From a virus (lineage: Duplodnaviria > Heunggongvirae > Uroviricota > Caudoviricetes), in IMG/VR virus record IMGVR_UViG_2609459844_000007, positions 1-15,367 of that record: DNA of 15,367 nucleotides; one strand, written 5' to 3'. The first letter of the stretch is position 1, and every line of letters starts with the position of its first letter. Of the stretch, positions 2,740-15,367 are shown in pieces. The notes beneath the pieces were generated by a model that was given only the letters and a program-made list of their open reading frames with translations, had not been told where the DNA came from and ran no database searches. The position numbers and the translations under genes are program-made.

Positions 2740-3854
2740 TATGCAAGCCTCACAATATAGTTAAATGCGATGTTTTTGACGGTGTTTTCCGCGTTACCAG
2801 CAGCGTTAACGGTGATGGTGTGTCCATGTGAGCCAATTGCAACGGAGTGCGTATGTGCACCAATACCGACAGTATGTGTATGCGCCCCAGCACTTGCTGC
2901 AGTACCTGATACTGAGTGGGTATGCGCGCCAGCAGAATTCGTTGCACCTAAGTGAGTTTGAGCAGAGTTCGACGAAGCTACTCTACCGGAGCTAACGTTA
3001 GCATTATCCCCCTGAGATATCGGATGCGTATGTGCACCTGCTGAAGCTGCTGTTCCGCTAACGCTATGGGTATGCGCACCAGTGTTATTCGTAGATTTAG
3101 TTCCATAATCAAACGATGATGTGTTTTTTGTCCCTAAATCTGTATTTGAAGCACTGGCGCTGTGGGTGTGCGATTTAATGCCGTCCTGTTCCTGGCTAAG
3201 AACATCACGTCCACTTGCAGGCTTACCTTTGATTGTCCAGCCACGCATATCAGGGATCACGCCTGACGGATAAGCGGCTGCAAGTTTCGGGTATGCAGAC
3301 TTGTCAAAAGTCTGTCCCTGCATCAGAGCATAACCAGATGGAACTGTATCTGATGGCCACGGGATCGGGGCACCTACAGGAAAGGTCGAATTATTTTCCA
3401 AACCAAGATATTTAAGGACATCAGCAACAGAGCTTTTTGCCAAAATATCTCGCCCAACCTGTGTCAGGTCAGCCAAATTAGCGGTATCTTGATTGGTAAA
3501 ATACGGTAATTTGTTTTCGGATGCTGAAAGATTAGCAAGTGCGGTAAGTATGGCATTAATTCTCTGATAGTTCTTATCTAATGCAGACGACATTTTTGCG
3601 ATAAAGCCTGCCTGATCGCCATCGTCCTGTACATCCAGTCCACTTTCATTTGCTGTATATTGTGCCATTGCAGATGCAATAAAGCTGGCCTGCCGAATAA
3701 CCTTATTGACTTGCGCACTGGATGCTTTCCCTGCTGTAAATCCGGATAAAAGCGCAGGCAACGCTTCCCATTCCTCCTGCGGCATAACATTGGCATTTTT
3801 ACCCGTTGCAAACGCTTTAAAGTCATTTTTCGCCATCAGAGTAATACTCCCCAT
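2739..3854 (-). CDS. Phage tail fibre protein (P2 gpH-like N-terminal region, collar-type C-terminal domain with GAHTHS repeats), 371 aa
   Basis: Segment [37 protein letters not shown] resembles recalled P2 gpH; repeated [19 protein letters not shown] motifs; position upstream of tfa. Confidence 0.8.
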
Positions 3855-4516: not shown

Positions 4517-5094
4517 GACTCCACCGTTATAACGATATTTTCCGGGGTACAGGACGCAGATTCGTTATATCTGATATCAATGTTTGATGACGACAAAGCC
4601 CCCGGGGATTTCCCAATCGTCAGTTCCTGAATATCGTAATAGCGTGCATTCCCGCCACTCGCCACGCCAAGATTCGCCGGTGAGTAAATGCGACTTAAAA
4701 GGACTGAATCACCAATCGTCAGACTATTGATATAGTCGGAAATAGCCTGCTGGATCTGCTGCCCTATCTGTGAGGTATAACCCGTAAAAACTTTTAATTT
4801 AATCCGGGCATAAACAGGCACATCACTGGAACGCGAGAATTTGATTACATGGGGATTGCCGTATTTATCCGGAACCGTAACGGATGTTGTACCGTGAGTG
4901 GCTGTCCCCTGGCCTTTATTCCCTCTGATAGCCTGAGCAATATCCGTCACATCACCGCCATCCACAATTACAGCAACAGAGTGTGGCGGTAACCCGTTAC
5001 CGTCCTCCGAACCAGTATCGTTTTCATAGAGTTTGTGGCGGGTTACACCGGTAACATTAGAAACAGCACCATCCAGTGCTTCAAATGGGGTTAA
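4495..5094 (-). pseudogene. Baseplate J-like protein, C-terminal fragment (5' end deleted)
   Basis: ORF has no plausible native start (track begins at a TTG inside the junction); reading frame runs directly out of the truncated dnaC-like gene; position upstream of gpI-like gene. Confidence 0.6.
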
Positions 5095-5497
5095 CCACAA
5101 TCACTGTCTGACCGTCTTTCAGCAGGCGATTCCCGATAGCTGCCGCTAAGTGATTCTTCCCGGTACCAGGTTTTCCGCTGAACGCAAAATTTGTACACCC
5201 GGTCATCAGTTCATCGGCGATGGATTTCGCCTGGCTTAACGCGTGTCGCTGGCCGTCGTTCTGCACCTGGTAATTCGCAAACGAGCATTTACGGTGCAAC
5301 GGCTGGATGCCTGAGCGATTCAGAATTTTTTCCACCCGCAACTGGCGATTCAGGCGGTTGATCTCCTCGCTACGTTTCTGGCCTTCAGCAAGTTGCCACT
5401 CGCGCCACTCCGCTACCGTTCTGAATGGTGCGGTTACATGTGGCGGAGTCAGTCGGCGGATGCGTTCCAGAACGCCGCCTGTCGCAATATTTTTCAT
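5081..5497 (-). pseudogene. DnaC-like phage replication protein (helicase loader, YdaV-like), N-terminal 135 aa only; reading frame leaves DnaC homology after ...GQTVIVV and stops
   Basis: Strong resemblance to recalled E. coli DnaC N-terminal half including Walker A GKPGTGKNHLAAAI; DnaC homology ends at about 5093 then NPI-stop. Confidence 0.8.
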
Positions 5498-6330: not shown

Positions 6331-6375
6331 ATTTAACTGATACCGAACAAAACAATCCGGCACGATTAATTTCAA

Positions 6376-6798
6376 TCAATGCACTACGACAGAATCGCCG
6401 GGCGACCCACCACCGCTGAAATGTGCTTTCCGGTAAACGGCCTGGACTGCATCATCATGCGCATCAATTGCCGTACTCAACGCTTCCTGCGCCGCCAGTA
6501 ATGCACGGCGTTCCAGGGTATCGAAGATGCAGAGTCGGTGACGCAGCTCGCGCGGAAGAATTGCCAGAACCGCAGGGATCAGTTTCTGAATTTTTTCCCT
6601 TTGCGCTTTCGTTTCACCTTTCAACCAACGGTGATAGATATTCTGCTGATTGTTCCAGTCCTTGCCTGGTACAAGGGGCAATTCGCCGCCCCCCTGGCGC
6701 AGATATTCTTCAGTAATTGCGTTAGCGACCCACGCCTGCCCTTTTTCGGCTGCCAGGGCTAACAACACTGATTCGATGTGCTCATGCCTGATTTTCAT
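6376..6798 (-). CDS. ydaT: YdaT-like (CII-like) prophage regulatory protein, 140 aa
   Basis: Sequence resembles recalled Rac YdaT; overlaps upstream Cro-like gene by 4 nt; position downstream of cro. Confidence 0.7.
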   Translation of the reverse strand: MKIRHEHIESVLLALAAEKGQAWVANAITEEYLRQGGGELPLVPGKDWNNQQNIYHRWLKGETKAQREKIQKLIPAVLAILPRELRHRLCIFDTLERRALLAAQEALSTAIDAHDDAVQAVYRKAHFSGGGSPGDSVVVH

Positions 6799-7037
6799 GA
6801 ATCAACCGCTCCTATGCTGTTTTCGCTATGCTTACCGTCTGGGGGGAATACATCGTCAAGTCCACAATGAGCGCCAAGCCGATTAAGGGTAGAAACAATT
6901 TTTCTGCACTCCTCTAGTCCAGGGGTACGAAAATTTGCTTCGTAATTTGCCAGTCGGCTTTGTATCCACCCTAACTGAACAGCAAGTTGTCTTTGAGACA
7001 GCCCAAGCTGTTTTCGATATGTTGAAATTTTGTTCAT
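6795..7037 (-). CDS. Cro-like HTH DNA-binding protein (YdaS-like), 80 aa
   Basis: HTH LGLSQRQLAVQLGWIQSRLANYEA; divergent from repressor gene; GGAGG Shine-Dalgarno 6 nt upstream of ATG. Confidence 0.75.
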   Translation of the reverse strand: MNKISTYRKQLGLSQRQLAVQLGWIQSRLANYEANFRTPGLEECRKIVSTLNRLGAHCGLDDVFPPDGKHSENSIGAVDS

Positions 7038-7061
7038 TGAAAACCTCCGATGACAATTTTA

Positions 7062-7122
7062 AACACACCTTGTGTTATATGGTCAAGCTGTTTTGTGTTT
7101 TATGTAAATCACGATTCGTGAT
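7062..7122. promoter_or_regulatory. Right operator region: inverted repeats aacac-N5-gtgtt (7062..7076), degenerate copy (7085..7099), atcac-N5-gtgat (7108..7122) at 23-bp spacing, between divergent cro-like and repressor genes
   Basis: Direct reading; candidate -35 TTGACC on minus strand (complement of 7081..7086) for the cro-like gene. Confidence 0.6.
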
Positions 7123-7133
7123 ACAAGGATGCA

Positions 7134-7553
7134 ATGGAAAAAGAAAACGAAAAAATTGCCGCCAGTAGGCTCAATGACAAAATTGCAATGCGTCTTAAAG
7201 AGCGCAGGCAGAAGCTTGGTTTATCTCAAGGAAAACTTGCTGAAATCTGCGGATGGACGCAATCGCGTATAGGTAACTATGAGGCGGGCAGCAGAAATGT
7301 TGGAGTGCATGACGCTGTCGTATTGGGAAAGGCACTTGGCATATCTCCTCCTGAGCTCCTCTTTGGAGAACAGGAATCTTCTGAATTGTGGTTAAATGAA
7401 TCCCAACGAAAACTTCTTGAGTTGTTTAACCAGCTACCGGGCTCAGAACAACAACGAATGATTGAGCTATTTGAAGTCCGGCTAAAAGAAATCGATGAGT
7501 ATGTAGAAAAATATTTGAGAGGCAGGCTTAAAGATAATCCCCCACCGGAGTAA
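7134..7553 (+). CDS. CI-like prophage repressor, XRE-family HTH, 139 aa, no LexA/S24-like peptidase domain
   Basis: HTH LGLSQGKLAEICGWTQSRIGNYEA nearly identical in the recognition region to the Cro-like protein; divergent arrangement across operators. Confidence 0.8.
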   Translation: MEKENEKIAASRLNDKIAMRLKERRQKLGLSQGKLAEICGWTQSRIGNYEAGSRNVGVHDAVVLGKALGISPPELLFGEQESSELWLNESQRKLLELFNQLPGSEQQRMIELFEVRLKEIDEYVEKYLRGRLKDNPPPE

Positions 7554-7583
7554 TGATCTTGCTATCACAGTAATATGCCAATC

Positions 7584-7608
7584 AGCCCGCTATCAGCGGG
7601 CTTTTTTG
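7584..7608 (+). terminator. Rho-independent terminator after repressor gene (agcccgct-atc-agcgggct + TTTTTTG)
   Basis: Perfect 8-bp stem, 3-nt loop, U-tract. Confidence 0.75.
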
Positions 7609-7637
7609 TACCATCATCATATGACACTCACCGAAAA

Positions 7638-7679
7638 AACACATTTCGTGTTGACATAAGAAAACGCATTGTGTTTAAT
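7638..7679 (+). promoter_or_regulatory. PL-like promoter (TTGACA 7651..7656, 17-bp spacer, TTTAAT 7674..7679) with overlapping operator aacac-N5-gtgtt (7638..7652) and a second degenerate operator (7661..7675)
   Basis: Direct reading; same operator motif and 23-bp phasing as in the right operator region. Confidence 0.6.
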
Positions 7680-7853
7680 AAGCATATCCAAACAACGCCC
7701 CATCAGAGAACGGCAGGACAATACCTCGAGTTATCCAGTCACTGAACAGGGCTAAGTAGCCAGCCTGAGGCATACGAACATGACGGCAGTTGTTGATTGA
7801 TACAAAGCGCAGTAGATAAAACGTTCCGCCACCCGGCGTTAAGGGGAAAAAAG

Positions 7854-8072
7854 ATGGTTGGTGAAGATCTGGTTGTTATTAACGGTCAATTGTGCAGCAA
7901 AGATGTGGCAGCCATGCTTATTAGCAAGGTTCTTCCAACTGTGCTGGAGGTCATTGCAGAAAAAGTAAAGGCTGGTCGTCCAGACAAGGAAGTTGAAGAG
8001 GCGGCAAAAACAGTTGTTCATGCCGCTACAGAAGCAATTATTTTGAAGAGCCTAGTTTCGCCCAAGCCTTAA
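7854..8072 (+). CDS. Hypothetical small protein, 72 aa (MVGEDLVVINGQ...), first ORF downstream of PL-like promoter
   Basis: Strong SD AAGGGG 7 nt upstream of ATG at 7854; T7 tract 8085..8091 downstream; no recognisable family. Confidence 0.5.
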   Translation: MVGEDLVVINGQLCSKDVAAMLISKVLPTVLEVIAEKVKAGRPDKEVEEAAKTVVHAATEAIILKSLVSPKP

Positions 8073-8232
8073 GTGAATCGGCGCTTTTTTTAGCATCACG
8101 TTCATTGAGTAGTGACAAAAACTCATTCTCAGCATTCTCGATTTCCGAGAAAAATTCTTGATGAGTTGTTTCTCGCTGCGATCTGATGCTGAAAACTAAA
8201 GCAAGTAGCCAGGCTTTGTCTTTATTATCCAT
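8038..8232 (-). CDS. Hypothetical small protein, 64 aa (MDNKDKAWLLALVFSIRSQRE...), convergent with and overlapping the 3' end of the 72-aa ORF
   Basis: SD AAGG 7 nt upstream of ATG; candidate sigma70 promoter on minus strand (-10 TATACT = complement of 8267..8272, -35 TTTACC); no family recognised. Confidence 0.35.
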   Translation of the reverse strand: MDNKDKAWLLALVFSIRSQRETTHQEFFSEIENAENEFLSLLNERDAKKSADSLKAWAKLGSSK

Positions 8233-8418
8233 AGGAATACCTTATTACTGGTTGTGTGAGAACTCCAGTATACCACCGAGCCTGAAGTGGTAAAAAGACA
8301 GGCGCACAACACGAAGGCGCATTTCCGGTATTCATAAAGAGTCGGACTTGTCTGTTAAATTTAAATGGTGGGAGTGCGCCTCCGGTTGTAAATAACGACA
8401 TTGCTATGTGTAGTCTTT

Positions 8419-8462
8419 GGCGGCATCAGTTCTACTCCGTGGCTGCCCTGCCGCCCCTTTTT
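8419..8462 (+). terminator. Terminator-like GC stem (ggcggca ... tgccgcc) followed by TTTTT, inside noncoding region upstream of kilR
   Basis: Direct reading; large loop, so strength uncertain. Confidence 0.35.
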
Positions 8463-8627
8463 AAAGTGAATTTTGTGATGCGGTGAATGCGGCTAAGCGC
8501 ACGCGGCACAGTTAAAAGCATCAGTGTTATGGGTGGATTATCCGGCGTTAATTGTTAACTGGTTAACGTCACCTGGAGGCACCAGGCACCGCATCGACAA
8601 AATTCATTTGTAAAAATGGTGATAATT

Positions 8628-8849
8628 ATGATTGCTCATCACTTCGGAACTGATGAAATACCACGTCAGTGTGTGACCCCTGGCGATTATGTTCTTCATG
8701 AAGGTCGGACATATATCGCCTCGGCAAACAATATTAAAAAGCGAAAACTTTATATTCGAAGCCTGACAACAAAAACATGCATTTCTGACTGCATGATTAA
8801 AGTCTTCCTCGGTCGTGATGGTTTACCTGTAAAGGCGGAGTCATGGTAA
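8628..8849 (+). CDS. kilR: KilR-like cell-division inhibitor (Rac kil), 73 aa
   Basis: Sequence [35 protein letters not shown]... matches recalled Rac KilR; gene order kilR-ydaE-racC-recE; track ORF starts 12 nt upstream at 8616 without an SD. Confidence 0.8.
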
Positions 8850-9019
8850 TGACTAAGAAAATAAAATGTGCTTATCACCTTTGCAATAAAGAAATTGAAG
8901 AAAGCAAAATCATTACAAGACCACTTCATTTCATGCGTGAAGTTATACCAACGACGGAAATGAAAAAATATTGTAGTGAAATCTGTGCCGAAAAAGACCA
9001 GATGGCACACGAACTTTAA
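8849..9019 (+). CDS. ydaE: YdaE-like small Cys-rich metal-binding protein, 56 aa (not in ORF track because under 60 aa)
   Basis: Manual translation [56 protein letters not shown]; start overlaps kilR stop (TAATG); position as in Rac. Confidence 0.7.
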   Translation: MTKKIKCAYHLCNKEIEESKIITRPLHFMREVIPTTEMKKYCSEICAEKDQMAHEL

Positions 9020-9469: not shown

Positions 9470-12400
9470 ATGAGCACCGATAAACAAGTTTACCCACTGT
9501 ATTACGAAGCAAAAAATGACAAAGTAAGAAAACGTCTCGGTATTAAAGGCGGTTTTTACTGGGCTGAAGCGAAAAAATTATCCATTGCCATCTCCCGTGG
9601 TGCTGTTGCGATTGACGATGCTGGCTACGATGAAGATGACTTCAAAAAACCTGTTCGCGTCAATTTGCCCGTTGTTGATGACCTCCCGCCAGAAGGCGTA
9701 TTTGATACGGAATTCTGCAACCGTTACGAAAAAGGCGGGGAAGATGGCATCACAATGGTATTTATCGCGCCCTCACCCTCTGCGCAGGGCAAACCAGCCG
9801 GCACTGACAACACCAATGTTAATGGCGAAGACATGACGGAGATTGAGGAGAATATGCTACTCCCGATTTCTGGCCAGGAGCTGCCCATTCGCTGGCTTGC
9901 TCAACACGGCAGCGAAAAACCGGTAACGCACGTTTCACGCGACGAACTCCAGGCATTACACATTGCACGGGCTGAGGAACTACCAGCTGTTACTGCCCTA
10001 GCTGTTTCCCACAAAACCAGCCTGCTCGATCCGCTGGAAATTCGCGATCTCCACAAACTGGTGCGTGATACTGACAGAGTTTTCCCTAATCCAGGCAATT
10101 CAAGCCTGGGACTGATGACTGCTTTTTTCGAAGCATACATGAACGCAGACTACACCGATCGCGGTCTGCTGACAAAAGAGTGGATGAAAGGAAATCGTGT
10201 TTCACGCATCACGCGCACGGCTTCCGGCGCTAATGCTGGCGGCGGGAACCTCACCGATCGCGGCGAAGGTTTCGTTCACGATCTGACGTCACTGGCGCGC
10301 GACGTAGCCACTGGCGTACTGGCTCGTTCAATGGACGTGGACATTTATAACCTTCATCCGGCACACGCTAAACGTGTCGAGGAAATTATCGCTGAAAATA
10401 AACCGCCCTTTTCTGTTTTCCGCGACAAATTCATCACCATGCCTGGCGGGCTGGATTATTCCCGCGCCATCGTGGTTGCCTCCGTAAAAGAAGCACCAAT
10501 TGGGATCGAGGTTATCCCCGCACACGTCACTGAATATCTGAACAAAGTACTGACTGAAACTGATCATGCCAACCCTGATCCGGAAATCGTGGATATTGCC
10601 TGCGGTCGCTCCTCTGCCCCGATGCCGCAGCGTGTAACAGAAGAAGAAAAACAGGATGATGAAGAAAAACCGCAACCATCTTGCGCAATGGCAGATGAAC
10701 AGGCAACGGCTGAAACAGTGGAACCGGATGCAACTGAACATCATCAGGACACGCAGCCGCTGGATGCTCAGTCACAGGTAAATTCTGTTGATGCGAAATA
10801 TCAGAAACTGCGGGCAGAACTCCATGAAGCCCGGAAAAACATTCCGCCCAAAAATCCTGTCGATGCAGACAAATTACTGGCTGCCTCTCGCGGAGAATTT
10901 GTTGAAGGGATTAGCGACCCGAATGATCCGAAATGGGTTAAGGGGATCCAGACCCGCGATTCTGTGTACCAGAATCAGCCAGAAACGGAACAGAACGACC
11001 AGAAAGCGGAACAGAACAGCCCAAATACGCAACAAAACGAGCCAGAAACGAAACAGCCTGAGCCAGTAGTGCAACAACTGGAAACGGAGAAAGTTTGCAC
11101 CGCCTGCGGTCAGGCTGGCGGCGGCAACTGTCCTGACTGCGGCGCGGTGATGGGCGACGCAACGTATCAGAAAACCTTTAATGAAGAAAATCAGAATGAA
11201 TATCAGGAAAAAGGTCTGGAGGAAATGGAAGGTGCTGAACATCCGCACAAGGAGAACGCTGGCAGCAATCCGCATTGCGATTGCAGTGATGAAGCTGGTG
11301 AAGCGACAGCACCTGTAGTAACTGAAATCATGTGGCCGTCATATTTCGAGCCTGGCCGCTATGAAAACCTCCCGAACGAGGTTTATCACTCCGCCAACGG
11401 AATAAGCAGCACAATGCTGAAGGATGCCCGCATCAGCCTGATGTATTACCACGGACGGCACATTGCCGGAACTATTCCGGGCGAGGAAAGTGATGCATTG
11501 CTGCGTGGGCGAATTATTCACAGCTATGTTCTGGAAACGGATAAATTCGCTGATGAGTATGCCATTCCGGTACCGGTTCCTGAATATGTGGTTACTACTT
11601 CTAACGAACTGATCGCCATCATTAAAAAACACAATGCCAGTCTGCCAGCACCGATGACACCAGAGCAGATGAAAGAGTGGATCGAAAGCTACAACAGCAC
11701 TCTTATACAGCCACTGTCGGTAAGTGCCGGGGCCGAAGAAACAGGCATCCTTTACGGTTCGCTTCCGGAGGAATTCCGGCGTATTCCTGAGGGGGAAAAA
11801 CACACAGCATCAGCAATGAAAGCCTGTATTAAAGAATACAACGCAAACCTCCCTCCTCTGTTGAAAACCAGTGGATCACGGGAGCAACTTCTGGAGCAAA
11901 TTGAAACTGTAGATCCAGAACTGGCAAAAAAAGAACGTGCTAAATCTTTGCCTTACAACATCAGTGGCACAAAAGAGCAATTAACCGAAATCGCACGGAA
12001 AATTCGCCCGGAACTGGTGACACTGGAAGACTGGCAAAAACGCCAGCAAGAAGAAAACGCCGGGAAAACGTTTATCAGTCCGGATATGTATGAACAGGCA
12101 AAAAATATTCACGCTGCACTGCAAAACAATACCGATGCAGCAAGGCTACTCAACCACCCGGATCGCAAATCTGAAATCAGCTATTTCGGGTTTGATGAAG
12201 AAACCGGGCTGGAAATCAGGGTCCGTCCTGATATCGAAATCCGGCTGCCATACGAAAGCATTTGCGCCGACGTGAAGTCAGTCAGCCTCGGTTATGTGCG
12301 ACAGGAACGACTGAAAGATCGCCTGCACCGTGAAATTATTGAGCGTGATTATCACCTCAGCGCAGCAATGTATTGCGATGTGGCAAACCTGGACAAATTT

Positions 12401-12766
12401 TTCTGGATCTTCGTCAACAAAGATGCTGGCTATCACTGGGTGGCCGTCGTGGAAGCCTCGCAGGAACTCCTGGAACTTGGTCGACAGGAATATCGCCGGA
12501 CGCTACGACAGATAAATGAAGCTCTGGAGACAAACAACTGGCCAGCACCGATTACCGAAAGTTATACCGACGAATTAAACGACTTTGATCTTCGTCGTCT
12601 TGAGAAGATGATAAATAACCTGCCTTCATCAGGTGATCCAGAAGCAGAACAAAAATTTATTGCTCTGGAAAATACGCTGAATGCTGCACGACCACATCTG
12701 GGAGAATTATATGAGGCGTATAAAACGACACTGACAGATATGAAACCAGAATATATCGGCTCCTGA
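9470..12766 (+). CDS. recE: RecE-family exonuclease VIII homologue, 1098 aa, with divergent C-terminal PD-(D/E)XK nuclease domain carrying a ~150-aa insertion and a C-terminal extension
   Basis: N-terminal/central ~600 aa closely resemble recalled K-12 RecE (e.g. [43 protein letters not shown]); Cys4 cluster [16 protein letters not shown]; PD...DVK motif at 12227..12276. Confidence 0.85.
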
Positions 12767-12829: not shown

Positions 12830-13024
12830 ATGCGGTATGAAAAAGTCAAACCATGTCCGTTTTGTGGTTGTCCATCAGTAACGGTGAAAGCCATTTCAGG
12901 ATATTACCGCGCAAAGTGTAACGGATGCGAATCCCGAACTGGCTATAGTGGAAGTGAAAAAGAAGCACTCGAAAGATGGAATAAACGAACTACTGGAAAT
13001 AATAATGGAGGTGTTCATGTATAA
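12830..13024 (+). CDS. ralR: RalR/Lar-like restriction alleviation protein, 64 aa
   Basis: MRYEKVKPCPFCGCPSVTVKAISGYYRAKCNGCESRTGY... matches recalled Rac RalR (Lar); Cys4 motif; track ORF begins at upstream ATG 12815. Confidence 0.8.
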   Translation: MRYEKVKPCPFCGCPSVTVKAISGYYRAKCNGCESRTGYSGSEKEALERWNKRTTGNNNGGVHV

Positions 13025-13205
13025 AATTACTGCCACTATTGAAAAGGAAGGTGGCACTCCTACTAACTGGACAAGGTACTCAAAAACAAAATTAACCAAA
13101 TCAGAATGCGAAAAAATGCTCTCAGGTAAAAAAGAAGCAGGCGTTTCCAGAGAGCAGAAAGTAAAGCTGATAAATTTTAATTGCGAGAAGCTTCTGTCCT
13201 CGTGA
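13017..13205 (+). CDS. ydaC: YdaC-like small protein, 62 aa
   Basis: GGAGG SD 5 nt upstream of ATG 13017; overlaps ralR stop; resembles recalled Rac YdaC; track ORF starts at 12948 inside ralR. Confidence 0.65.
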   Translation: MYKITATIEKEGGTPTNWTRYSKTKLTKSECEKMLSGKKEAGVSREQKVKLINFNCEKLLSS

Positions 13206-13260
13206 GTTGCATTATATACAAATTAGAACTTCATAGCTGATTATTAAAAATCAACCACCC

Positions 13261-14730: not shown

Positions 14731-14763
14731 AGACGTTTGCAACTAATTGATTTTAAATACAAT

Positions 14764-14795
14764 TAAAAAAAGACCGAATACGATTCCTGTATTCG
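14764..14795. repeat. Right prophage-chromosome junction: att-core copy that is also the terminator hairpin of sdsR
   Basis: Imperfect direct repeat of 1066..1098; perfect hairpin gaccgaatac-gattcct-gtattcggtc. Confidence 0.65.
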
Positions 14796-14868
14796 GTCCA
14801 GGGAAATGGCTCTTGGGAGAGAGCCGTGCGCTAAAAGTTGGCATTAATGCAGGCTTAGTTGCCTTGCC
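14764..14868 (-). ncRNA. sdsR: SdsR (RyeB) RpoS-dependent small RNA, about 105 nt
   Basis: Minus-strand sequence GGCAAGGCAACUAAGCCUGCAUUAAUGCC...GGACCGAAUACAGGAAUCGUAUUCGGUC(U)n matches recalled SdsR; sigmaS-type -10 CTATTCT (complement of 14874..14880) upstream; terminator hairpin plus U-tract. Confidence 0.85.
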
Positions 14869-14955
14869 CTTTAAGAATAGATGACGACGCCAGGTTTTCC
14901 AGTTTGCGTGCAAAATGGTCAATAAAAAGCGTGGTGGTCATCAGCTGAAATGTTA

Positions 14956-15025: not shown

Positions 15026-15367
15026 TTAACAGAGTTTTTCAGCTCGTTCTATAAACGGTGCCAGACTCATTTTTTCGCCGGGATTGTTAGGATCATCAAT
15101 CTGAATCACCGAAATGGGTTGGGCTTTAGTCTTCCCACTGGCAACTTCCTTTTGTGCGATATCGTTTAAAGGATACTGCACGAGGGTACTTGGGTTAATG
15201 ACATACAAAGCATTACCCGGTCTGCAAGTCAGCATCACCTCTTCGCGATTAAACGCCCATTTGTCTTTACCCACTTCAAAACGACTGACGGTAATCACCT
15301 GCGGTGCAGCCAGCGCCGCTGCAGAACTGGTGAGTAACAGAAACGTCAGAATACTTTTTTTCATCAT
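15026..15367 (-). CDS. yebY: YebY, DUF2511-family secreted protein with signal peptide, 113 aa
   Basis: [23 protein letters not shown] signal peptide; matches recalled E. coli YebY; start codon is the last triplet of the window. Confidence 0.85.

Follow-up and report, generated by a model that had tools for sequence, protein, structure and literature searches.

The segment between positions 6376 and 7700 of the window, that is, of the whole 15.4-kb stretch of DNA analysed here, raises the question of whether its divergent repressor and cro-like genes form a working genetic switch, and of how such a switch might be thrown when the repressor has no self-cleavage domain. The element concerned is a truncated, defective Rac-like lambdoid prophage of E. 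coli, located between pphA and yebY; to the left of 5092, tail genes have taken its place. The gene order is lambda-like, with ydaT and ydaU-/ydaV-like genes on one side of the segment and kil, recE, ralR, xis and int on the other. Our reading, which we hold with high confidence, is that 6376-7700 constitutes the lysis/lysogeny immunity switch of this prophage.

The divergent repressor and cro-like genes are separated by a gap of 96 bp, in which three phased sites lie over the promoters PR and PRM. The motif AWCAC-N5-GTGWT has three exact matches in the whole window, compared with a shuffle mean of 0.06, and none of 200 shuffles gave three matches. All three exact copies fall inside the two regulatory gaps, and all are perfect palindromes: the OR1-like site O1 (AACACACCTTGTGTT, 7062-7076; half-sites AACAC and GTGTT around ACCTT), the OR3-like site O3 (ATCACGATTCGTGAT, 7108-7122; ATCAC and GTGAT around GATTC) and OL1 (AACACATTTCGTGTT, 7638-7652; AACAC and GTGTT around ATTTC), whose 15-mer is also found, identical, in the related locus L015. 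Between O1 and O3 lies O2 (AAGCTGTTTTGTGTT, 7085-7099; AAGCT and GTGTT around GTTTT), which retains the right half-site alone, while OL1 is followed by OL2 (AAAACGCATTGTGTT, 7661-7675; AAAAC and GTGTT around GCATT), which carries one mismatch. The spacing is exactly 23 bp in both groups (7062/7085/7108 and 7638/7661). When up to one mismatch is allowed, there are five matches compared with 1.86 expected, the additional ones being OL2 and a site at 1080, outside the region; at two mismatches, the count (33, compared with 22.5 expected) shows the motif at chance level in the window, so that the degenerate sites rest on their 23-bp phasing and conservation and not on window statistics. O2 and OL2 are half-sites, and their occupation probably depends on cooperativity. 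No third in-phase OL site was seen by inspection of the sequence at 7615 or 7684. The preliminary description had listed these three exact and two degenerate sites and no comparable density of the motif elsewhere; the sites are as it described them, both degenerate ones lying in phase at 23 bp from exact ones, and the rest of the window adds no exact copy and only the single-mismatch copy at 1080.

The sites are arranged in the same register at both early promoters, and each hexamer is overlapped by 2 bp. On the minus strand, PR comprises a -35 element TTGACC (7081..7086), the plus-strand GTCAA of which is invariant in the intergenic regions of a comparison set of 11 related loci, and, 17 nt further on, a -10-like TTTAAA (7058..7063) read from the sequence; TAAAAT at 7061..7056, 19 nt past the -35, is an alternative. 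The -10 register is shared by the relatives, the exact hexamer being ambiguous. Relative to the inferred start of PR, O1, situated between the PR -35 and -10, is centred at about -18 and O2 at about -41; relative to the inferred start of PRM, the centre of O2 lies at about -42. On the plus strand, PL comprises a -35 TTGACA (7651..7656), of which TTGAC is invariant in the 11 loci, and, 17 nt past it, a -10-like TTTAAT (7674..7679), likewise read from the sequence, with TAATAA (7676-7681) as an alternative that, like that of PR, needs a 19-nt spacer. Both sites near PL had been described as overlapping its -35; this holds for OL1, by 2 bp, while OL2 sits between the two hexamers and overlaps the -10 by 2 bp. 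PL had also been called strong. Its hexamers and 17-nt spacer are present as described, but the epithet is unproven: in the 17-nt-spaced -10s of both PL and PR, position 2 is not the near-invariant A, and a sigma-70 scanner called neither promoter, in the case of PL because TTTAAT lacks that A.

For the repressor gene, we infer a PRM -10 element TACAAG (7122..7127, plus strand), which adjoins O3 and lies 6 nt 5' of the repressor ATG; T-A-n-n-A is invariant 6-7 nt 5' of this ATG in the 11 loci. Such a position implies a leaderless or near-leaderless mRNA, and judging from the sequence, the transcript is probably leaderless. However, the window's hexamer does not end in T, and 4 nt 5' of the ATG there is an AAGGA, which makes a leadered mRNA from another promoter possible. 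Downstream, the gene ends at an intrinsic terminator (7584..7608, plus strand) with an 8-bp stem, six GC pairs and a T run; a hairpin and T run occupy the same position in the relatives. The terminator hairpin at 7584-7602 is confirmed, and the PL-like promoter and its OL sites lie beyond it, as described earlier. The only Rfam match over 6900-8300 was a sub-threshold Trp-leader on this hairpin, which we dismissed as chance.

The repressor (7134..7553, plus strand) comprises 139 amino acids and, from Pfam, BLASTP and AlphaFold, an HTH_3 domain followed by a DicA-type C-terminal helical hairpin. Pfam reports HTH_3/HTH_31 alone, with no Peptidase_S24 domain of the kind that has a Ser/Lys dyad and an Ala-Gly site of cleavage, and the C-terminus is modelled by AlphaFold as a helical hairpin at residues 89-133 (pLDDT 88). 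BLASTP aligns the repressor with K-12 DicA at 29% identity (E 2e-15) over residues 14-135, including LLELFNxLPxSEQ. By sequence it is a full-length DicA homologue of the short, non-cleavable class, in agreement with the earlier remark that it has no S24/LexA-like autocleavage domain. Its HTH fold matches the DNA-binding domains of 434 and P22 c2; Foldseek against the PDB matched the HTH part only and gave nothing for the C-terminal domain.

The Cro-like protein (6795..7037, minus strand; 80 amino acids; Pfam HTH_3, E 7e-10) is encoded by the first gene of the PR operon and shares 55% identity with the protein annotated as Cro in phage mEp213; no homology was found to DicC or K-12 YdaS. It aligns with the HTH of its own repressor at 45% identity over 42 residues (E 2e-10), and the recognition helices, TQSRIGNYE in the repressor and IQSRLANYE in the Cro-like protein, are near-identical, as the preliminary description had stated and with the peptides correctly quoted. 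From sequence, the Cro-like protein is a paralogue of the repressor HTH, as in phage 434, and the two proteins are predicted to compete for the same sites, an idea that fits the GWxQSRxxNYE helix common to both. Gene conversion between the cro and repressor HTH DNA was considered, a 30-nt stretch showing 83% complementarity, but was rejected, since the within-locus identity of the 75-nt HTH segment (48-65%) is no higher than that between orthologues.

The third gene of the rightward operon, ydaT (6376..6798, minus strand), encodes a cII-like regulator of 140 amino acids (Pfam YdaT_toxin, E 5e-11) that matches PHROG 163, the CII-like activators (E 1.5e-36), and is 95% identical to YdaT of K-12 Rac. 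A YdaT-box (TTGATTCATGAAAATCA, 6789..6805, minus strand), an exact match to TTGATT-N6-AATCA, overlaps both the start codon of ydaT and the stop codon of cro; in K-12 Rac, a footprinted YdaT-box occupies the same position (PMC11879457). On the other side, the PL operon contains DicF (8405-8456; Rfam 60.9 bits, gathering score 48) and Kil (8616-8849). Its leader (7694..7850, plus strand) is marked by the blocks AAGTAGC, GGCATACGAA, GCGCAG and GTTCCGCC..GGCG..AAGG and is kept behind repressors of unrelated specificity, as well as in K-12 Rac. The leader consensus folds into stems that are mostly invariant, with three compensatory pairs; searched for as an HK022 put RNA, a 15-sequence nhmmer profile found no match in the HK022 immunity region.

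We postulate that repressor dimers bind the 15-bp A(A/T)CAC-N5-GTG(A/T)T sites through their 434/P22-type HTH and that the C-terminal helical hairpin holds dimers or higher oligomers together. Occupation of O1 (strong) and O2 would cover PR and keep the cro-like gene, the cII-like ydaT and the replication genes off, and a dimer at O2, about -42 from the weak PRM start, could activate repressor synthesis; O3, over the PRM core, would provide negative autoregulation. OL1 (strong, -41) and OL2 (weak, -18) would shut off PL, which presumably drives a dicBF-like operon of DicF, kilR, ydaE, recE, ralR, xis and int. The Cro-like protein would fill the same sites, O3 first, thereby turning PRM off and locking the derepressed state, and its order of site preference is predicted to differ from that of the repressor. 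A layout of this kind has experimental precedent in DicA/DicC (PMC3441716, PMC10448788), PaaR2/YdaS (PMC8630535) and RacR (PMC5700373).

How the repressor would be removed is the second part of the question. RecA-stimulated self-cleavage is not available as a means of removing a repressor that lacks an S24 domain. Repressors of the DicA class are not cleaved and are controlled by antirepressors (PMC3121763, PMC10448788), and the parallels with DicA/Rem and the Gifsy repressors make an antirepressor the most likely route of derepression here. The window contains no antirepressor gene, and a LexA box is found neither in the window nor in the intact relative L001. Since the truncated prophage encodes no antirepressor, only a trans-acting factor or instability of the repressor could flip the switch.

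This leaves room for a reading in which the operators are real but the module has become a one-way silencer like RacR, no longer a two-state switch: a constitutive, non-inducible repressor would keep the toxic prophage genes (DicF, kilR, ydaT) silent, with the Cro-like protein normally never made. Intact relatives hold candidate antirepressors in a region that this prophage does not have, the tail genes left of 5092 standing in its place, and no LexA box is present. Furthermore, RacR of K-12 is essential, as it silences ydaS/ydaT (PMC5700373), the window's YdaT is 95% identical to a toxic K-12 protein (PMC11879457), and DicF and Kil sit in the PL operon. However, cro and ydaT are intact, as is every operator half-site, and all of these are under purifying selection; DicA/DicC of Qin flips spontaneously in ~1% of cells with neither antirepressor nor RecA (PMC10448788), and antirepressors acting in trans from other prophages are documented (PMC3121763). 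We regard a silencer as possible but distinctly the less likely outcome.

No more probable is derepression with no antirepressor involved, in which the repressor would be lost through intrinsic instability or through proteolysis (heat, denaturants, Lon/ClpXP) and Cro would then lock in the new state. The absence of an antirepressor gene from the window speaks for it. Against it, an intact relative with an identical immunity region retains a 70-aa phrog_1813 ORF adjoining hokD, and in a Yersinia relative, a LexA box, dinI and a phrog_1813 ORF follow one another in the Gifsy arrangement, the Yersinia ORF giving a weak profile match to the Rem family, phrog_340. Homology of these small ORFs to Rem was itself considered and set aside: BLASTP gave no alignment, and the weak phrog_340 profile match is the sole link.

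A further reading, to which we give little credence, takes the repressor for a domesticated immunity gene that confers SOS-proof superinfection immunity against the mEp213 group and is derepressible only by antirepressors in trans. It derives from the fact that the DNA-binding module, comprising the repressor HTH, Cro and the AWCAC-N5-GTGWT operators, is shared with the SOS-cleavable cI of mEp213, whereas the C-terminal domain has given way to a DicA-type hairpin that is not cleavable; if true, the locus would be a domesticated immunity gene rather than a decaying switch.

Returning to the two-state immunity switch, its layout is preserved well beyond this prophage. In the comparison with 11 related loci, three sites in the divergent gap and two past the repressor terminator are found again in Salmonella, Citrobacter, Serratia, Enterobacter, Pectobacterium and Kosakonia, as well as in the phages Chris1 and mEp213; among 5426 complete E. 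coli genomes, 21 carry this immunity type. A weak central OR site is present at the O2 position in relatives, and the OL side has two (or three) sites, ~85-95 nt past the repressor stop, flanking the invariant TTGAC. The conserved geometry and this invariant hexamer core support the OR/OL layout proposed in the preliminary description. Compared with the Salmonella homologue, none of 30 half-site bases differ, as against 17 of 66 other intergenic bases (Fisher p 0.0008). O1 is identical at 10 of 10 half-site bases, with a different spacer; O2 is fully conserved, and OL2 is conserved in its right half-site alone. Between these two loci, synonymous sites of the flanking genes are saturated, and dN/dS of cro is 0.07.

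The GWxQSRxxNYE helix co-varies across loci between repressor and Cro and with the outer operator bases: QSR helices occur with AACAC sites, ATASR in the repressor plus GRSR in Cro with GACAC/GCCAC, and SGAPR plus NQPR with TTCAC. Where the N-terminal HTH has been swapped, the locus is devoid of CAC-N5-GTG sites. The correspondence between helix and operator is not a strict one, as a Yersinia relative has the same QSR helix with partly different half-sites (AATTC). In most relatives, O3 is unlike O1 at the second/fourteenth base. That the palindromes merely reflect chance or base composition, the HTH proteins regulating something else, is very improbable: the unenriched two-mismatch motif and the copy at 1080 would fit such a view, but the three exact copies are confined to two regulatory gaps in exact phase, and sites are kept across genera while spacers and flanks diverge. 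Least probable of all is that the 139-aa protein belongs to a restriction-modification system as its controller (C) protein and that the sites are C-boxes. In favour of this, its HTH lies near C.AhdI among solved structures by sequence (E 1.2e-6, second to Stl), C.AhdI is the top fold match of that HTH, and cross-talk is known between C proteins and the region of the Rac repressor (PMC9638921). However, the neighbours are cro-cII-O-P and kil-recE-xis-int with no adjoining restriction or methylase genes, and the DicA-type C-terminal domain is not found in C proteins, which consist of an HTH only, in about 70-100 amino acids.

Taken as an immunity switch, the locus offers a concrete map, open to test, of the operators and promoters of one Rac-like prophage immunity type with relatives across the Enterobacterales. 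DicF, KilR and YdaT each arrest cell division and are probably kept in check by the repressor, which may for this reason be conditionally essential, like RacR in K-12. The design of the switch is a known one, in the lambda/434 style, although not studied previously for this operator type, and the general picture of lambdoid switches is unchanged.

Among known systems, the Qin locus of E. coli K-12 (DicA/DicC/dicBp) resembles the window in its non-cleavable repressor of 135 amino acids, of which the window repressor is a full-length homologue, in its divergent small regulator, in operators that are both intergenic and at a PL-like promoter past the repressor gene, and in a downstream operon with DicF and a cell-division inhibitor. 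Qin has the Rem antirepressor and shows bistable switch behaviour (PMC10448788). It differs in its DicA site Oc, TTGTTAGTCATAACTAACAA (PMC3441716); of three predicted DicA sites, only one was bound in vivo. DicC is unrelated to the window's Cro-like protein, and the window has no Rem homologue. PaaR2/YdaS/YdaT of CP-933P (O157:H7) likewise has a small non-S24 repressor and a gap of 97 bp, compared with 96 bp here, with equally spaced palindromes, a leaderless paaR2 mRNA and a PL-like promoter with OL sites, and its YdaT is a cII analogue, all of this having been shown experimentally (PMC8630535, PMC9986795). In contrast to the window, CP-933P has the operator consensus GTTTAGTAA, four sites and a toxin-antitoxin pair after paaR2, and the two YdaT proteins are no more than remote relatives (E 1.7e-6 to 8bt1). 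The Gifsy repressors GfoR, GtgR and GfhR of Salmonella are, by their description, similar non-cleaved lambdoid repressors of ~136-150 amino acids, and DicA and many E. coli prophage repressors have been placed in this class (PMC3121763); Gifsy has LexA-controlled antirepressors, whereas the window has no LexA box, dinI or antirepressor gene.

The backbone is that of K-12 Rac (ydaT, 95% identical, ydaU/V, kilR, ydaE, recE and ralR), which also has a divergent layout with three or four operators (PMC5700373). However, the K-12 operators are GCCTAA/TTAGGC, the window's intergenic sequence has no GCCTAA, and RacR and K-12 YdaS give no significant alignment with the window proteins; the two elements differ by an immunity-region swap. 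The viable lambdoid coliphage mEp213, whose operators we found no description of in the literature searched, is close in its Cro and in the DNA-binding domain of its repressor (58% identical), and it shares AWCAC-N5-GTGWT-type sites, 22-24 bp phasing at OR and OL and the -10-then-ATG geometry. It differs from the window in a cI with a Peptidase_S24 domain, in three OL sites (3+3) and in nutL and an N gene past PL. One Cro/operator/HTH set is thus paired with either an S24 domain, in mEp213, or a DicA-type domain, which represents modular exchange. Operator spacing of 23/24 bp is that of lambda OR. In phage 434, Cro is an all-helical paralogue of the repressor HTH; its recognition helix is almost that of the repressor, with which it competes for shared palindromic operators; the repressors of 434 and P22 have an S24 autocleavage domain, unlike that of the window, and the operator sequence differs. 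As a whole, the design is ordinary, and the near-identical recognition helices of repressor and Cro-like protein are the classical 434 situation.

The window contains a lambdoid prophage, Rac-like and truncated, that is flanked by the host genes pphA (277-936) and yebY (15026-15367), and its gene order around the immunity region matches that of lambda. The minus strand carries the gene of a Cro-like HTH protein (6795-7037), the cII-like ydaT (6376-6798) and, on the same side, ydaU- and ydaV-like replication genes. The 139-aa HTH repressor gene (7134-7553, plus strand) is followed by the intrinsic terminator placed there by the preliminary description (7584-7602, plus strand), and then by a plus-strand operon with DicF, kil, ydaE, a RecE-like gene, ralR, xis and int. 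The YdaT protein shares 95% identity with its K-12 Rac counterpart, but neither the repressor nor the Cro-like protein shows detectable similarity to RacR or K-12 YdaS; a Rac backbone therefore carries an immunity cassette of another kind. At least 80% of the length of the 2-kb immunity region is found in 21 of 5426 complete E. coli genomes, while ydaT-like DNA matches in about 1500 of them. The truncation point lies inside the ydaV-like gene (5081-5100 and leftward), where similarity to an intact E. coli relative stops at 5092. Baseplate and tail-fibre genes occupy the left side instead, and the nin/Q region, which houses a candidate antirepressor in relatives, is lost. The prophage sits at the SraC/RyeA-SdsR/RyeB small-RNA locus beside yebY, with both RNAs complete directly past int (14761-14905).

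The predicted operator motif A(A/T)CAC-N5-GTG(A/T)T has three exact matches in the 15,367 bp, at 7062 (O1), 7108 (O3) and 7638 (OL1), as previously described; shuffled sequences average 0.06, and none of 200 contained three. The two degenerate sites are likewise present, 7085 (O2) as a copy of the right half-site and 7661 (OL2) as a one-mismatch copy, each spaced exactly 23 bp from one of the perfect sites. Since the motif statistic loses power in the window once mismatches are allowed, these weak sites rest on phasing and conservation. The repressor family is large and well conserved in Enterobacterales (155 database clusters), and we compared loci from Salmonella, Citrobacter, Dryocola, Serratia, Enterobacter, Pectobacterium, Kosakonia and Yersinia and from phages Chris1 and mEp213. 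All of these loci possess three sites, 23-24 bp apart, between the divergent genes, and an invariant TTGAC past the repressor terminator with two sites around it (three in mEp213). Against the 84%-identical Salmonella homologue, the 96-nt gap aligns ungapped with 17 differences: 0 of 30 half-site bases differ, compared with 4 of 15 spacer and 13 of 51 other bases (Fisher p 0.0008). Synonymous sites of the flanking genes are saturated in this comparison, and cro has a dN/dS of 0.07.

Across loci, the repressor and Cro helices co-vary. The CAC/GTG core accompanies invariant SR..NYE residues, and the outer bases vary with the residues preceding them: QSR is paired with AACAC, ATASR (repressor) and GRSR (Cro) with GACAC/GCCAC, and SGAPR and NQPR with TTCAC. 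Loci sharing the C-terminal domain but with a different N-terminal HTH contain no CAC-N5-GTG sites. A strict helix-operator code is weakened by a Yersinia locus with QSR helices, which has AATTC as well as AACAC half-sites. In most loci O3 differs from O1 in the base beside the CAC core, a plausible basis for a Cro preference for O3. An identical copy of the OL1 15-mer, AACACATTTCGTGTT, follows the C-terminal end of a repressor family member at 246-260 of a contig labelled Sphingomonas sp. (L015), probably enterobacterial contamination of that assembly. PP818812.1 (Actinobacillus phage vB_Apl-pPE4), with a DicA-family repressor and 96% DNA identity to the window ydaT and PL regions, looks like an E. 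coli-type lambdoid phage.

The promoters share one geometry. The PL-like TTGACA-17-TTTAAT lies past the repressor terminator as claimed, but may not be "strong": its -10 hexamer TTTAAT is missing the position-2 A that is near-universal in sigma-70 promoters, and the promoter was not called by the scanner. Of the two PL sites, both proposed to overlap the -35, 7638 does so by 2 bp, and 7661 reaches into the -10 instead. The minus-strand PR is designed alike, with TTGACC (7086-7081), 17 nt and TTTAAA (7063-7058). At both promoters one site overlaps the -35 and its neighbour the -10, each by 2 bp, and PR and PL are thus in the same register, with the strong site on the -10 side at PR versus the -35 side at PL. 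Directly after O3, 6-7 nt before the repressor ATG, a T-A-n-n-A element in 11 of 11 loci points to a -10 for a leaderless repressor mRNA. The lambda cI mRNA is leaderless, and so is that of paaR2 (PMC8630535). A leadered transcript is possible in the window, as its PRM hexamer, TACAAG, is poor and AAGGA stands 4 nt before the ATG. Relative to a start near 7134, O3 lies at about -19, over the PRM core, O2 at about -42 and O1 at about -65; relative to a PR start near 7051, the positions are -64, -41 and -18. Lambda OR has centre-to-centre spacings of 24 and 23 bp and OR2 at -42 of PRM, an arrangement repeated here in operator spacing and O2 position. From geometry and precedent, PR would be repressed via O1 and O2, PRM possibly activated from O2, the repressor gene autorepressed at O3, and PL repressed via OL1 and OL2.

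Pfam finds HTH_3 alone in the repressor, bearing out the reported lack of an S24 domain. Residues 14-135 align with K-12 DicA (29% identity, E 2e-15), including the C-terminal LLELFNxLPxSEQ. The AlphaFold model (60-sequence alignment, pLDDT 88) shows five helices in the HTH domain and, after it, a hairpin formed by helices 89-99 and 103-133; structure searches returned C.AhdI, P22 c2, 434 and Stl, for the HTH part only. The repressor N-terminus contains a 27-nt tandem duplication (7146-7186; AACGAAAAAATTGC / AATGACAAAATTGC, peptides NEKIAASRL / NDKIAMRLK) that lengthens the first helix, is common to the Salmonella homologue and is missing in other family members. The Cro-like protein and the repressor HTH are paralogous (45% over 42 residues), and the former is 55% identical to the annotated mEp213 Cro. 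The mEp213 cI shares 58% identity in its DNA-binding domain, there fused to Peptidase_S24, and mEp213 OR and OL have sites of the AACAC-N5-GTGAT type. The Cro/operator/HTH module is therefore common to both, and the C-terminal domain of the repressor has been exchanged.

Repressors of the DicA and Gifsy GfoR/GtgR class are not cleaved but displaced by small antirepressors, LexA-controlled in Gifsy and Rem in Qin (PMC3121763, PMC10448788). One Yersinia relative carries, directly past the replication genes, a LexA box, a dinI homologue and an ORF of 76 aa; this ORF belongs to phrog_1813, as does a 70-aa ORF beside hokD in the intact E. coli relative. The 76-aa protein weakly matches phrog_340, the family of Rem; BLASTP of the phrog_1813 ORF proteins against Rem found nothing. 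The window is collinear with the intact relative from 5092 on, the part with the candidate antirepressor is lost, and the window contains no LexA box. Flipping its switch would probably take a trans-acting factor or instability of the repressor; DicA instability is reported with heat and urea (PMC10448788).

The PL-like promoter is followed by a conserved leader, about 130-170 nt long (7694-7850, plus strand), with the blocks AAGTAGC, GGCATACGAA, GCGCAG(C/T)AG and GTTCCGCC..GGCG..AAGG. It recurs in other loci (L018, about 2890-3060, minus strand; L002-L016, L019, L026), behind repressors of unrelated specificity, and between racR and ydaG in K-12 Rac. In one form the outer stem is GUCAUC/GAUGAC, with a few compensatory changes. 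No N-like gene follows the leader, which has no Rfam match and does not resemble the HK022 immunity region; it may act as an antiterminator in cis or be some other leader RNA. The PL operon combines the DicF sRNA (8405-8456, Rfam 60.9 bits), a Kil-type septation inhibitor (8616-8849) and a YdaE-like protein (8843-9019), all plus-strand, which makes it a cross between the Qin dicBF operon and the Rac kilR region. Antisense within it, at the position of sieB in K-12 Rac, lies a 64-aa ORF (8038-8232, minus strand, phrog_22868) that has a promoter-like site of its own, TTTACC-16-TATACT with TG (8294..8267). The 1098-aa RecE-like protein (9470-12766, plus strand) has an Exonuc_VIII N-terminal and a DUF3799 PD-(D/E)XK C-terminal part, resembling 1070-aa proteins of Serratia relatives. 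Directly 3' is ralR, without recT, opposite the RalA antitoxin sRNA (13023-13201, minus strand); the intact relative has an 877-aa recE and recT, and its collinearity with the window breaks between 10990 and 12830. Searching the window for YdaT boxes gave 5 strand-matches, 0.8 being expected. One such inverted repeat, TTGATTGAAATTAATCG (6363-6379, one mismatch), lies directly past ydaT, and another, TTGATTTTTAATAATCA (13238-13254, exact), upstream of xis/int, recalling the lambda cII-dependent PI promoter.

As a whole, three plus two phased sites conserved across related loci support the OR/OL reading with minor corrections; its notable points are the exchange of modules with mEp213, the PRM, which is probably leaderless, and the conserved leader behind PL. 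Our literature search found no paper on this operator type or on the mEp213 operators. In layout the switch follows lambda and 434; its repressor belongs to the DicA/Gifsy class. Among systems studied by experiment, the closest analogues are DicA/DicC (PMC3441716), PaaR2/YdaS/YdaT (PMC8630535) and RacR/YdaS (PMC5700373), all with different operators.
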